Of a stretch of DNA of 64,000 nt, positions 534-59,825 are shown one piece after another. How positions within the stretch are numbered: position 1 is the first letter of the stretch; each line of letters begins with the position of its first letter. The notes beneath the pieces were generated by a model, which ran no database searches, was not told where the DNA came from, and saw only the letters and a list, made by a program, of their open reading frames with translations. A program made the translations under genes and the position numbers. This DNA is from an uncultured Acidimicrobiia bacterium (GTDB lineage Bacteria > Acidobacteriota > Terriglobia > Versatilivoradales > Versatilivoraceae), in contig CAWEPG010000002.1 in assembly GCA_963810905.1 (NCBI GenBank), positions 242,178 to 306,177 on the forward strand. Direction: 5' to 3'.

Positions 534-2683
534 CTATTGCGGCGTCACCCCTAACTGCCAAAACAAGAAACTGATCTCATCGGTCAACTCATCAATTCTC
601 TTCCCTACGGGAGTGGAACCTCGCGAATGACCCGCTTTCGTATCATATAAGAGCATCACCGGACGATCAGAGCCTGATGAAGCCTGCAAGAGCGCCGTCA
701 TCTTCCGTGCGTGCAGCGGAGCGACGCGCGTGTCGCTGTCACCTGTCACGAAGAGCACCGCAGGATATTTCGTTCCAGGCTTCACGTTCTGATAAGGAGA
801 ATAAGCCAGCAGCACCTTGAACTGCTCGGGATTTTCAGAAGACCCGTATTCCGGGACCCAAAACTTGGCTACAAGAAATTGATGATAGCGAATCATGTCG
901 AGAAGAGGATAGGAGCAGATAACGGCCCGGAAAAGTTCAGGCTGCTGGGTCAGGGCTGCTCCGACCAGCAATCCTCCATTGCTTCCACCCGAAATGGCCA
1001 ATTTGGAAGGGTCTGTATAATTTTGTTTGATGAGCCATTCGGCAGCGGCAATAAAATCGTCGAAGACATTCTGTTTTTTTTCCAGCATGCCAGCTTGATG
1101 CCAGGTCTCCCCGAATTCGCCACCGCCCCTCAAATTTGGAACGGCAAAGACCCCGCCGTGCTCTACCCAGTAGGCCGCCAAAGGGGAGAAACTTGGCGTC
1201 TGGCTTTGCAAGAAACCGCCGTAACCGGTCAATAAGGCCGGGTTTTTTCCATCACGCCGCAAGTCTTTGGAGTGAACCACGAACATCGGCACCCGGGTTT
1301 GATCCTTGGAGTTATACCAAACCTGAGTGACTTCAAACCGGCTGGCATCAAACGGGATCTTCGTCTGAGCCCAAACTTCCTGCATATCCGCGGTGGAGTC
1401 GTACCGATAGATCGTTGTCGGGATCAGGAAAGAGCTAAATGAAAAAAATACCTCTCGATTTTTCCACTGCCCGGAAACCCCACCGACACTACCGATGGCG
1501 GGAAAAGCAATCTCCCGTAAATATTGACCGTCTTTGGTGAAGATTTTGACCGATTAGCGAACCTCTTTCAGGAAGTTGACAAATACCCGGCCACTGGCGG
1601 CGGAAAAGCCTACGATTGTGGCATCACTTTCAGGAATGATTTCCCGCCATTTTTCTTGTGCAGGATCTCTTCAAGTCCACTTTTAAGATCCGGCCGTTAG
1701 GCGCTTTCCAATCGGTTTTCAGGTAGAGAACGTTTAGGGCGACATCAGGCTGGAATCTGGCCTCGATGTCGGTGACAATGGGAATCCATTGCTTTCCCTT
1801 TAAGAAGATCGCACGCATACACTTCGGTCTTCTTGGCGGCAGATCCGTAATGAATGGTGGCGATCAAATACTGCCCGTCTTCGGAGAGGGAGAGGCCAAT
1901 GATTTTCTCAGGACCGTACCCCTTTCCGAAAATCTCAACATCTGCTTCGGGAGCTTTTCCCAAAGTGTGGACATAAACTCGAGGGCCTTCTGGACCAAAC
2001 CGAGAAAAATAAATATCTTGATTGTTTGGATGAATCGAGATTCCGGTGTAACGAGCTCGTGGCAGTTCATCAGGCAATTGCTGGCGTGTCGCAACCCGCA
2101 TCAGATGAATTTCGATTTCGTCGGCTCCGCCGCGTCGGATCCCATAAGCTACCAGGGTCCCATCTTGAGAGACATCCAATAGATCAATGCTGGTGGTGTG
2201 GTCAGCACTCAATGAATGGGGGTCAAGGAGAACCTCATCTGGCCCCTGTAGCCCCTTCCTGACATAAATGGCAGCCAAGTCCTGGTCTGCCTTCCGTTTG
2301 GAAAAAAAATAAAGCCCGTTCCGCTCGGTTGGGACGCCAAGAGTGTCCGTTCTTAACAACTCCGAAAGTCGCTGCTTCATGGCCTCTCGCCCAGGCAATG
2401 GCTTCAAGAGCGAATTTGAATAGTTATTCTGAGCATCGATCCAGGCTCTTGTCTCGGAGCTGTTTTGATCTTCGAGCCAGCGATAGGAGTCAGTCAATTC
2501 GACCCCATGCAGTGTTTCCCGGGTCACTTCTACTTTGGTACTGGGATATTTTTGTTCTTGCGCAAATGAAAATTCGTAAAAACAAAAGAAGAATAGAAGC
2601 ATCGCCAAACAAGCATTCCCTGCCAGCTTCTGATGACCGCTACCAGAACGCCTAGTTGAGCTCAATTCGTTATGTCGTTTCAT
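534..2683 (-). pseudogene. Prolyl oligopeptidase (peptidase S9A): N-terminal beta-propeller plus C-terminal catalytic domain, with signal peptide. Reading frame is broken at least twice (~1630-1640 and ~1745-1820)
   Basis: The N-terminal part (MKRHNELS..., hydrophobic leader, TRETLHGVELTDSYRWLED) is in frame 1745-2683. A middle piece (LNVLYLKTDWKAPNGRILKVD) is in a second frame at 1630-1818. The catalytic part with the GGSNGG serine motif is in a third frame at 534-1385. This could be a real pseudogene or an indel error. Confidence 0.75.
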
Positions 2684-2730
2684 GAGAATTCCGAAAATGG
2701 GTAGGGTAATCCAGACCAGATTGCCATATT

Positions 2731-3694
2731 TTAAGGCTTCAACAAAATTTTTCCAAAAGTATTGCGTGACTCTAATGCCTTCAGAGCTTCGGCAGCCTCC
2801 CGAAGTGGGTATACCTGACCGACGACCGGGCGAATGTTTTCCTGAGCAACGAATTCCAGTAGTTCCTGGGTGAGTAGCTTGAGTTTGGCAGGCTGTTGAA
2901 ATAAAGTGGCCAGCCAAAATCCAATTATCGAAACAGAGTTCTTAAAAAGTCTTCCGGGATGTACAGCCGGAGTTTTGCCGCTGGCAGATCCCAAAGACGA
3001 CAATTCTGGAAAAAGGCGCAGCAGCGTCGATGTCTTTTTCCAGAAAATCCCCTCCATTGGATTCAAAGATAATATTGGCTCCCTGCCGCCGGGTAAATTC
3101 AAGTACGGGCTCAACAAAATCGACCTCTTTGTAATTGATAGTCAGATCTGCCCCCAGGGCTTTTACCTTTTCCAATTTCTGATTGGTGCTGGCCGAAGCA
3201 ATCACTTCAAGTCCCAACTTCTTCGCCAGCTGGATCGTTGCCGTCCCAACGCCCCCCGCAGCGGCGTGGACCAGAATGACTTCGCCGGCGACAGCCTTCG
3301 CTGAGACTTTTAACATCGCATAGGAGGTCAGATAGGTGCACGGAAAGGCCGCGGCCTCTTCAAAGCTGAATTTCTTGGGGACAGGAATGGCGGCTTGCTC
3401 CGGAATCACGACATACTCCGCGTAGGCTCCTGAACAGAACCCCATGACCCGTTCCCCTTGCCACATGGGTCTGGCCCCATTTCCGATTCCAACGACTGTC
3501 CCGCTATATTCGAATCCAAGTACAGATGGGAAGGAAGGCTTCTGTAGATAAAATCCCCTCCGGATCATGGTGTCAGCATAGTTCATGCCGGCATATTCGA
3601 CCTTGACCAACAGTTCCCCATCACCAGGTTTTGGGTCCGCTACGGTTTGATACTTGGGGAACTCATTTTCTTGATACAGCACGATGGCTTGCAT
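2731..3694 (-). pseudogene. NADPH:quinone oxidoreductase / zinc-type alcohol dehydrogenase (MDR family), frame-disrupted near 2940-2960
   Basis: The N-terminal 250 aa at 2942-3694 has a GroES-like fold and the Rossmann motif AAGGVG. The C-terminal ~75 aa (...NIRPVVGQVYPLREAAEALKALESRNTFGKILLKP) lie in another frame at 2731-2960. Confidence 0.7.
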
Positions 3695-3759
3695 GATCTC
3701 CTCCGTCTAGCTTCTTGGGATTGCAGAATTGACTGGCGGCGCACACAGACCGCTGTTAC

Positions 3760-57651: not shown

Positions 57652-58088
57652 ATTTAGCGATTAAAGCTACTGGAGGCCCACTGGCGGGTCAACGAACAAG
57701 CACTGGGTGCTGCAGGTAGTGCAACAGTAAGACAAGCCCGATCTCTAAGTCAAGAGGCATGGATAATAATTGAAGCTTCCCTCCCCACAACCCAGATCCA
57801 CTGCAATTTGGGATTCTCCCAGAGTGCTCAATAGAGTATGCATCTGAAATCAGCCCTTTGTATCGCGAACATCCTCTTCTTTCATGAATTTCAGCTCAAA
57901 AAGGCTATTCGGTGCCTCGGAAACGATGGGTCCAGAAGTTTCAATTCGAACCCCAGGCATCTGAACAGGTCTAGAACGCCCTCCATAGTGTACTCATATG
58001 ATCGATGGGTTGGGTTGGAGCTTCGATTTGTTTTCACACAAAGGCACAAAGACCTATTCGACTCTTCCATTCAGGATTCGCGAAATCC

Positions 58089-58438
58089 CGTCTTTCATTA
58101 ATGCTTCGCCAAAGTTCAGAAGGTACCCTAGTTTCATTCCAGTCAATTTGAGATAGGTCAGGACCTGTTTTTTATGTGCATTACTGACTGCTTCCACTGA
58201 TTTCAACTCCACAATCACCTTGCCTTCAACGATGAGGTCTGCCCGGAACCCCTTCGTTGAAGGTCATCCCATGAAACTCAATGGCGACGGGAACCTGCCG
58301 TTCAACTCGCAGACCCAATTGCTCCAATTCGTGAACCAGAATAACCTCATATACGCTTTCGAATAGTCCGGGACCCAACTCTTTGTGGATCTGTACGGCA
58401 CAGTTAACGATTATTTTCCCAATCTCGTTTTCCTTCAT
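58089..58438 (-). pseudogene. GxxExxY family protein, frameshift ~58230-58260
   Basis: The N-terminus MKENEIGKIIVNCAVQIHKELGPGLFESVYE is in ORF 58226-58438. The conserved C-terminus ...RADLIVEGKVIVELKSVEAVSNAHKKQVLTYLKLTGMKLGYLLNFG is in another frame down to ~58089. Confidence 0.6.
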
Positions 58439-58487
58439 CTCTTCGTGGCTTTGTGTCTTATTGAGAGTTCATATTCAAAGAATAGCC

Positions 58488-59825
58488 TTAGGGCGCGCTG
58501 GCGATGAAGGCACCGTCGCCGCTGCGGTGGGTAGGTGCGCCGCCATCGTTGATCACGGCGTAACCAATGAAAGAATTCTTACCTGCGGTCCGCGTGATCC
58601 GGGCGTAACCTTGCGTCACTCCCGGGGCATATTGCGAAAGAATCATCCCTTCTGGACCCAGCGGTTGGCTCCCAGAGTGAGGCCCTCCACCGTCGCCACT
58701 TTGGCTCCTGTGTCCCCATTGAAAATCTCAATCGTGAAAGTGTCTTCACTTTCGTCCATTTCTCCGGTGTTCACCAACGCCACCTGGCCCTCTCCTTACC
58801 AAGCAGGGAAATCACAATTGATTTTCTTCATACCCTCCCTCAAAAGAGAGTGTTTAAAATGTCTTCGAGTGGATTGCCAAACGACGAACCATAATGTGGA
58901 TCTGATTGAGGACGTCCCGAAAAGGTGAAGGTTTTCCATACTTCCACCAATGGTCGCACCCACAATGTCGTAGTTCGTCCCCCTCCGCTATTTTGCAGGC
59001 AGTGGATAGGCATTGATGATTACGTTGTCGTAAAAGGCCTCGACCTGGGCGAATGTTTGAGTGCTGGTACAATTCGAGCTCCAGACCACGGCGTCAATGG
59101 TCCTCCTGGGAGACACGGCCGGCGTCGTATCAGAAATAGAGTAAGGTAACATTACCTCCTTGCCCGGACCAGGCTCGCCCTTGACCTTCACAACAGCAAT
59201 GAACTGATGGTTCGCCTTGTCCCAAGCAAGGGTTCCGGTTAGAGGAGTTCCTATCGGATAAGAATCGATGTCAGTCCAGCCACCTTGGCCACTTACATAC
59301 CAGAAGGCGCTTACCTTCATATGTCTTTGGGTCCGTGGTATCGACCGAAAGGATCAACAGAGATGTAACGTCGTCGGCAGAGTCGCCAGTCCCCGTGTTG
59401 AAGTAATACCCGCCGATCTGTACCCGGGTAAACGTCCCTTCGGTATTGTTGGTGGAACATCCAGTGCCGCTGAAGCTGCGCAGGGCAACGTCGGCGGTGA
59501 TGCTGCTAATCGTGTTCGGATTGACAAAATCCAACTCGGACTCGCTACTCTGAAGACCAGAATTCGAATCGGTCGCCCCGAAGGACCGGACCTCCAGCCG
59601 TAAGTGCCCGTTCTGAATTTCGCGGACGCATTCCAGCCCCCGACAAAAGGGACCGGTGGCCAGCCACTTCGCGGGATTAAGCCACTTCTGGTCGAAGGTG
59701 TCGTAGTAAACCGGCTTGCCACGTAGGGCAGGTTCCTTAGCCGTGGGCTGCTGCGGCCACTGCGCCCACGCCGCAGATAGCAAAGAGGTGAATAGAACCA
59801 ATCCGAGAACAATAATTCGTTTCAT
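58488..59825 (-). CDS. Secreted hypothetical protein (signal peptide MKRIIVLGLVLFTSLLSAAWAQ), frame-disrupted. Its C-terminal tail is duplicated at 55200-55320
   Basis: ORFs 59271-59897 and 58988-59320, plus coding-like sequence down to ~58488. Confidence 0.4.

Follow-up and report, generated by a model that had tools for sequence, protein, structure and literature searches.

Why should protein continuity jump from one reading frame to another in gene after gene of a single contig? The question is raised by a 64,000-nucleotide (nt) stretch of contig CAWEPG010000002.1 (positions 242,178 to 306,177 of the forward strand; assembly GCA_963810905.1), which comes from an uncultured bacterium placed by GTDB in the class Terriglobia of the Acidobacteriota and which we refer to as the window. 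An earlier note on this DNA, made from the letters alone, had listed at least 13 frame-disrupted genes and had offered two causes for them, namely consensus indel errors or genuine, widespread pseudogenisation. The frame jumps are indeed present, at or near the places where the note had put them, as judged from Pfam matches, homologues and DNA alignments, and in two genes from frame geometry. With good confidence, although reasoning from sequence, we infer that the lesions are consensus errors of a long-read, probably low-coverage, metagenome assembly. The frame breaks are most likely a known kind of artefact, i.e., a data-quality problem rather than a biological feature.

Number, scatter and direction of the lesions

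Genes were examined one by one for a protein family or a homologue that passes from one frame into another; a mechanical list of 180 pairs of abutting open reading frames (ORFs) contained too much noise to be used without homology. In this way, about 23 disabling lesions were counted over the roughly 49.6 kb of coding sequence that could be assessed (about 0.46 per kb), affecting 14 of 49 genes, or roughly a quarter. Eleven of the 13 genes named in the earlier note are supported by Pfam, homologues or DNA alignments, a TfoX_N-domain gene and a Ser/Thr kinase gene among them being only probable; the other two, encoding a hypothetical protein (4645-5174) and a secreted protein (58488-59825), are backed by frame geometry alone. 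Beyond that list, we found a third break in a GT1 glycosyltransferase gene, a lesion at about 52205 in a zinc-ribbon protein gene, an extra intergenic base at 52615 and an in-frame TAA codon at 1554-1556 in a prolyl oligopeptidase gene. Adjacent ORF pairs of the small-gene array at 24.9-27.6 kb, tried as further frameshift candidates, were rejected, being separate complete genes.

Removing or adding one base at these sites restores full-length ORFs with intact homologues of equal length, 789 amino acids (aa) in the case of a YfhO-family membrane protein and 776 aa in the case of a spermidine-synthase-like (SpeE-like) protein. Base repair likewise restores the glycosyltransferase (residues 1-401 against GtfB) and a PDDEXK_3 nuclease-fold protein (positions 2-117 of 117), and makes a PSCyt1-WD40 protein and a PPC-domain protein contiguous in homologue coordinates. 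The remark that the ORF track over-fragments genes is borne out.

Such a lesion count is far above the background of related loci. Two genes, PSD1 and DUF1501 (about 3.9 kb each), surveyed at 80 related GTDB loci, gave one frameshift in about 300 kb, and 79 of the 80 loci had none in either gene. The sole background frameshift lies in the PSD1 gene of a Microflora Danica metagenome-assembled genome (MAG), MFD05454.bin.1.192 (L008), on contig_8286, which is a Flye-style name.

The 14 affected genes compare with 17 expected under uniform scatter over coding length (P=0.07); hence the lesions are not piled up in a few 'dead' genes. Errors seem to fall regardless of function, as they include a base in a spacer (52615) and are scattered almost uniformly over genes. 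Regional density nevertheless varies. The 12.1 kb of coding sequence between 32.5 and 47.5 kb, from metH to PSD1, is free of lesions (P=0.0016, post hoc), and the 11.1 kb of coding sequence between 47.5 and 59.9 kb holds 11, about one per kb (P=0.006). Uneven read support would give regional clustering of this kind; we infer the link to read support.

Nearly all lesions are single-nucleotide changes: about 18 extra bases as against about five missing ones, with one nonsense codon in addition. That all shifts are +1 was considered and rejected, given the -1 shifts at two sites of the SpeE-like gene, in the TfoX_N gene and in a DUF2235 fragment. Indels were not concentrated in homopolymer runs, which agrees with the earlier remark that the breaks are not obviously in homopolymers; one of the seven window insertions placed at the DNA level falls in a run of three or more. 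In 8 of the 24 cases resolved at the DNA level, the inserted base is the same as a neighbour; for a random base, 44% would be expected. Bacterial mutation is deletion-biased, and spontaneous mutations are expected to show a slippage pattern. The inserted bases, being mostly non-neighbour and outside runs, do not follow the slippage pattern of spontaneous mutation.

This spectrum bears directly on the second cause proposed in the earlier note. Under that scenario, single-base frameshifts and a nonsense mutation would have inactivated about a quarter of the genes, genuinely and very recently, in the manner of genome reduction. The excess of insertions over deletions runs against the deletion bias of bacterial mutation, and the inserted bases are mostly neither neighbour copies nor placed in runs. 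Broken genes carry no multi-base indels, no insertion sequence (IS) elements were noticed in them, and the number of affected genes fits random scatter. In favour of decay, one may cite the in-frame TAA, one truncated gene remnant and the two or three lesions found in each of the oligopeptidase, glycosyltransferase, YfhO and SpeE-like genes. Moreover, every broken gene is plausibly dispensable, and the conserved genes metH, degP, the ntrC-like gene, DUF1501 and PSD1 are untouched over a 13-kb run of coding sequence. Taken together with the relatives and the selection described below, these points leave pseudogenisation unlikely.

A side observation concerns the GATC motif: 6 of 29 single-base indels have one no more than 4 nt away, where 2.6 would be expected (P=0.04). 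The window holds 371 GATC occurrences, and about 250 would be expected from length alone. We regard the association as a weak hint of a basecalling error related to a methylation motif of the Dam type.

Close relatives and selection on repaired genes

A comparison with orthologues, which the earlier note had recommended, found none of the lesions of the window in its two closest relatives. The first of them, L081, a 3.5-kb scaffold (ENA ERZ1759591, the AH_forest assembly), is 91.8% identical to the window over 3414 nt. Exactly five gaps separate the two, all of them single extra bases in the window and none in L081: one in the zinc-ribbon gene, one in the spacer and three in the YfhO gene. L081 thus lacks all five of the window's extras.

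The second relative, L124, represents 22 kb (1-22331) of the 382,595-bp contig_27995 (ENA ERZ25039488) and is 88-93% identical to the window over 42.8-52.3, 55.3-58.2 and 60.2-61.4 kb. Its alignment confirms the extra bases of the window at 48584, 50365 and 52205, as well as the losses at 55611 and 55995. At the same time, L124 has lesions of its own and is the more severely affected of the two. Against the window it shows 19 uncompensated extra single bases, and the window shows five against L124. Two of the 19 reflect losses in the SpeE-like gene of the window, and at least 15 others fall in the PSD1, WD40, PPC, zinc-ribbon and methyltransferase genes, which together make up about 10 kb and are unbroken at these places in the window. 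At the L124 lesion positions, PSD1, WD40 and PPC are also unbroken in a short-read MAG (L003). The PPC gene of L124 passes through frames 3, 1, 2, 3 and 1 in succession, and its gene calls for PPC, WD40, PSD1 and the methyltransferase are fragmentary; PSD1 is clean in the window and has two lesions in L124. No conspecific sequence turned up; the closest relatives are these two (88-93% nt identical), and not a single lesion position is common to them and the window. A more distant locus (L004) was rejected as a control for natural indels, being too diverged (about 76% nt identity).

Overall, a like syndrome is present at unrelated positions in L124, but not in L081 or in 79 of the 80 GTDB loci. 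The contig_N name and the 382-kb size suggest a Flye-type long-read assembly for L124. If the lesions were real, L124, about 10% diverged, would need to have decayed independently, in the same genes but at other sites, including the PSD1 gene that is intact in the window. Two long-diverged and constrained lineages would both require recent bursts of random-base insertion in the same genes, and a technical cause explains this directly.

Selection tells against decay as well. Ratios of nonsynonymous to synonymous substitution rates (dN/dS) between the window and L124, computed with all 1-nt indel columns removed (dS 0.37-0.52), are 0.069 for PSD1, 0.084 for WD40, 0.096 for PPC and 0.020 for DUF1501, and the repaired frames of PSD1, PPC and DUF1501 have no in-frame stops. 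The YfhO gene is also stop-free once repaired; its dN/dS against L081 is 0.24, and changes at third positions predominate in each of its four segments. The repaired genes are thus under strong purifying selection (dN/dS 0.02-0.24). Signs of relaxed selection, i.e., dN/dS near 1 or secondary stops, were looked for in the repaired PSD1, PPC, DUF1501 and YfhO genes and were not found.

Gene content and relatives point the same way. Pfam annotation shows a mixture of housekeeping and accessory genes, including metH, a DegP-type protease, an NtrC-type regulator, the DUF1501 / PSCyt2-PSD1 / PSCyt1-WD40 group and many small genes. A scan with the PSD1 protein, taking one genome per GTDB species, returned only Acidobacteriota MAGs (Terriglobia, Bryobacterales), the best syntenic relative having 80-90% protein identity over 34-47 kb. 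The window itself is absent from the collection scanned, and exact look-ups of two of its intact proteins gave no hit in the public gene index. Such a large accessory repertoire and the synteny with free-living soil MAGs are unlike a reduced genome. The DUF1501, PSCyt2-PSD1 and PSCyt1-WD40 genes (43282-48988) form a conserved syntenic block common to many Acidobacteriota MAGs, so the Pfam names of this 'Planctomycete-type' block are misleading as to taxonomy. A scan of metagenomes with the 6119-7480 protein found only 41-69% relatives without synteny, and was uninformative on the oligopeptidase, quinone oxidoreductase and kinase genes.

The extra bases could also be imagined as real +1 shifts that are read through, the lineage expressing its genes by efficient +1 ribosomal frameshifting or four-base decoding at many non-conserved sites. 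Such a scenario would suit two observations: +1 shifts greatly outnumber -1 shifts in two related assemblies, and purifying selection persists downstream of the shifts. We nevertheless hold it to be very improbable. No common sequence motif was seen at the DNA-resolved +1 sites, whose contexts are unrelated, and the zero-frame stops come 30-55 nt past the shift rather than at the shift site. Positions are not conserved among the window, L124 and other orthologues; an extra base also sits in the spacer at 52615; -1 shifts and a nonsense codon occur too; and L081, the nearest short-scaffold relative, has none of these shifts.

A variant of the technical explanation is strain mixing, in which the contig would be a collapsed consensus of co-occurring strains, with indels introduced by the assembler or polisher where the strains differ. 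Lesion density does peak around segments that vary among relatives (the YfhO gene is absent in L124, and 58.2-60.1 kb is rearranged), and close relatives at 88-93% identity are present in public samples. However, the sequence itself shows no mosaicism, identity to both L081 and L124 is even along the alignments, and many lesions fall in conserved syntenic genes such as WD40 and PPC. Strain mixing and simple low coverage appear inseparable on the letters of the contig. We would give strain mixing slightly less credit than pseudogenisation, while ranking it above read-through.

We therefore return to simple consensus errors, the cause that the earlier note had put first and that is favoured by the insertion excess, the spacer lesion, purifying selection and the syndrome in L124. 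Frameshift-causing consensus indels in long-read assemblies, dependent on coverage, are well documented (PMC9262707, PMC12007338). In the present case, the consensus of the contig would hold random single-base errors, mostly spurious insertions with few losses and probably some substitutions, at a density that would vary along the contig with local read support. Each error inside a gene would shift the frame, and a mechanical ORF list would then show two to four pieces in place of a single gene. In the organism, the genes themselves would be intact and functional.

Several points weigh against this interpretation. The classical Nanopore signature, homopolymer deletions, is not what is seen, although homopolymer concentration is typical of some platforms and is not required of all long-read consensus errors. 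The nonsense codon and the truncated DUF2235 fragment are lesions of the kinds that real decay produces. Regional clustering would also arise if selection spared important genes such as metH, degP and ntrC. The selection test may be compatible with a very recent origin of pseudogenes. Finally, L124 was taken to be long-read and L081 short-read from naming and size alone.

The broken genes and the consequences of their fragmentation

The first broken gene encodes a prolyl oligopeptidase of the S9 family (537-2917, minus strand) and is read in three frames, with two +1 shifts in addition to the TAA at 1554-1556. The shifts lie within 1786-1801 (AAAGGGAAA[G]CAATGG) and 1660-1674 (TTGAAG[A]GATCC). 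In tblastn, five homologues align with 2551-1805, 1794-1669 and 1670-546, in frames -1, -2 and -3, and the Pfam matches are split accordingly, Peptidase_S9_N 2-265 being in one ORF and its positions 350-413, together with Peptidase_S9, in another. The TAA codon, on the minus strand, stands opposite a conserved Ser of the homologues. No other nonsense lesion was found, and this one could result from a substitution error or from a real mutation.

The neighbouring quinone oxidoreductase-like (QOR) gene (2734-3694, minus strand) has one +1 shift within 2980-2998 (GTCTTTGGGATCTGCCAGC), with ADH_N and ADH_zinc_N 1-95 encoded in ORF 2945-3706 and ADH_zinc_N_2 73-134 in ORF 2734-3141. The hypothetical membrane-anchored protein at 4645-5174 (plus strand) appears to run through frames 0, 1 and 2, as three abutting ORFs with protein-like translations imply two +1 shifts, within 4832-4917 and 4995-5071; neither the pieces nor the repaired protein gave a Pfam match. 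The Ser/Thr kinase gene with a tetratricopeptide repeat (TPR) tail (10396-12694, plus strand) probably has one +1 shift within 12208-12232. Pkinase and TPR domains are encoded in frame 0 and TPR_12 in the frame+1 ORF 12038-12694. Past the shift, frame 0 reads as Arg/Cys/Gly-rich junk, and in the repaired protein the TPR_12 match improves to E=4.7e-11.

In the GtfB-like GT1 glycosyltransferase gene (19572-20786, plus strand), the earlier note had seen two breaks; the three-frame reading yields three +1 shifts, within 19710-19725, 19750-19765 and 20637-20654. Glyco_transf_28 1-44 is matched in ORF 19560-19805 and EryCIII-like_C 30-105 in ORF 19724-20920. The repaired protein of 402 aa aligns along residues 1-401 with the vancomycin-group GtfB (PDB 1iir, E=9e-118). 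This gene lies in a region (14000-23000) with a GC content of 0.57-0.61, compared with about 0.50 elsewhere, and is adjoined there by methyltransferase, SnoaL-like, MFS and GNAT genes. The region looks like horizontally acquired DNA of natural-product type in an acidobacterium.

Two -1 shifts, the first of them probable, follow. The TfoX_N-domain gene (30483-30811, plus strand) probably lacks one base within 30504-30517: the domain match (4-90/91) begins at 30524, its frame is closed by a stop at 30491-30493 and offers no start codon upstream of 30557, and the peptide 'MAFDEGLAD', with its ATG at 30483, is read in another frame. The N-terminal fragment of a DUF2235 (Tle1-like) gene (32130-32400, plus strand) carries a -1 shift within 32245-32258, so the frame disruption that the earlier note had reported holds (near 32250); the fragment is, however, also truncated and in that respect may be a real remnant. 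Once repaired, the piece of 79 aa covers positions 1-74 of the 287 of PF09994 (E=1.7e-12), and a globin gene that starts at 32509 directly downstream leaves no room for the rest of the domain. It may descend from a type VI effector-like gene for a Tle1-like phospholipase, of which it would be a genuine remnant.

The denser part of the window opens with the PSCyt1-WD40 gene (47527-48988, plus strand). It has one extra T at 48584 (cacagtcg[T]cgtttcac), shown as a single base by the L124 DNA alignment, and four homologues move from frame 1 to frame 2 at 48584-48594. The gene for the PPC-domain protein of about 800 aa (49046-51482, plus strand) has one extra base at 50365/50366 (cgggatca[T]caactcca); in a homologue, residue 425 is the last to align in frame 2 (up to 50365) and residue 426 the first in frame 3 (from 50367), in agreement with the L124 DNA alignment. 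In the zinc-ribbon protein gene (51528-52300, plus strand), an extra base at 52205/52206 alters the C-terminus. The base is absent from both L081 and L124, and the corresponding gap in L081 is internal to a gene call at 189-686.

The extra C of the spacer (52615; CC to CCC in the L081 alignment) lies 46 nt before the start codon of the YfhO-family gene at 52661. The latter (52661-55033, plus strand) has an extra A at each of 53027, 53415 and 54004 and encodes 789 aa once repaired. Full-length homologues of 780-800 aa are abundant, the best of them (P0001, 789 aa, encoded on L081) being 89% identical. The YfhO gene belongs to a strain-variable 3-kb segment (52330-55273) that is present in the window and L081 and absent from L124, where the zinc-ribbon and SpeE-like genes are about 300 nt apart. 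The SpeE-like gene (55323-57651, minus strand), encoding a spermidine-synthase-like membrane fusion protein of 776 aa when repaired, lacks one base at each of 55995 and 55611, as placed by the L124 DNA alignment. Homologues align in frames -2, -1 and -3, and an intact orthologue of 776 aa (P0361) is 93% identical. A position of the upstream deletion inside a T run was rejected in favour of 55995, where the DNA alignment places it.

In the GxxExxY / PDDEXK_3 nuclease-fold gene (58057-58438, minus strand), a run of G within 58243-58258 is one base too long (GAAGGGGTTC). The halves of PDDEXK_3, 2-59 and 59-117, are encoded in two frames, and the repaired protein matches 2-117 of 117 with E=3.2e-41. 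A GxxExxY homologue from another relative (L007) is likewise split over two frames.

The secreted protein region (58488-59825, minus strand) is partly resolved from its frame geometry. An N-terminal piece (59274-59903) continues in the +1 frame as 58991-59353, and C-terminal pieces (58491-58783) lie in two further frames. A Laminin_G_3 protein of L124 matches only the N-terminal 68 aa, and an L124 ORF matches 58783-58652 (frame -1) and 58643-58491 (frame -3). This ORF belongs to a BACON/TIG-domain gene cluster, and the arrangement of 58200-60160 in the window differs from that in L124, where this part spans about 6 kb. The secreted-protein gene of the window may be a deletion-derived composite.

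In practical terms, gene calls on the contig of the window over-fragment about a quarter of the genes, and the same applies to contig_27995 of ERZ25039488 and to the PSD1 gene of MFD05454.bin.1.192. Such fragments inflate the counts of pseudogenes and 'hypothetical proteins' and seed protein databases with partial sequences. Fragments from the contigs of frameshifted relatives are present in public protein collections. Frameshift-aware tools are called for wherever another finding in the window depends on where ORFs begin or end, on the length of genes or on their apparent loss. Were the lesions real, we would be dealing with a free-living soil bacterium showing massive recent gene inactivation or tolerated +1 frameshifts, which would be surprising.

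Relation to known systems

Programmed +1 ribosomal frameshifting is known from prfB in bacteria, and widespread +1 sites at stop codons occur in Euplotes. The window resembles these systems in its net +1 shift and its functional-looking downstream frame. Unlike them, it has neither a conserved shifty motif nor a stop at the shift, one extra base is non-coding, and the orthologues are unshifted at the window positions, i.e., positional conservation is lacking.

Pseudogene-rich, recently host-restricted bacteria such as Mycobacterium leprae and Sodalis glossinidius offer a second comparison. Like their genomes, the window has many disrupted genes, some with multiple lesions, one nonsense codon and one truncated remnant. 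It differs from them in its insertion excess, and neither IS elements nor larger deletions were seen in the broken genes. Selection is not relaxed (dN/dS 0.02-0.24), gene content and relatives look free-living and of soil type, and the lesion positions differ completely from those of the closest relative.

The consensus indel problem of long reads, reportedly treated by Watson and Warr in 2019, is the third system. The IDEEL test, proovframe, Homopolish and Kastor address frameshift-causing consensus indels in assemblies and MAGs from Nanopore or PacBio continuous long reads (CLR) (PMC9262707, PMC12007338). As in such assemblies, single-base indels split the window genes into adjacent ORFs in different frames with conserved downstream sequence, the errors lie in genes and spacers at a density far above that of short-read MAGs, and the same syndrome occurs in L124 and L008, both with Flye-style contig names. 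In contrast to textbook Nanopore errors, i.e., homopolymer deletions, those of the window are mostly insertions of a seemingly random base outside homopolymers. This insertion-rich spectrum is closer to the errors known from PacBio CLR data without correction or from a consensus of very low coverage.

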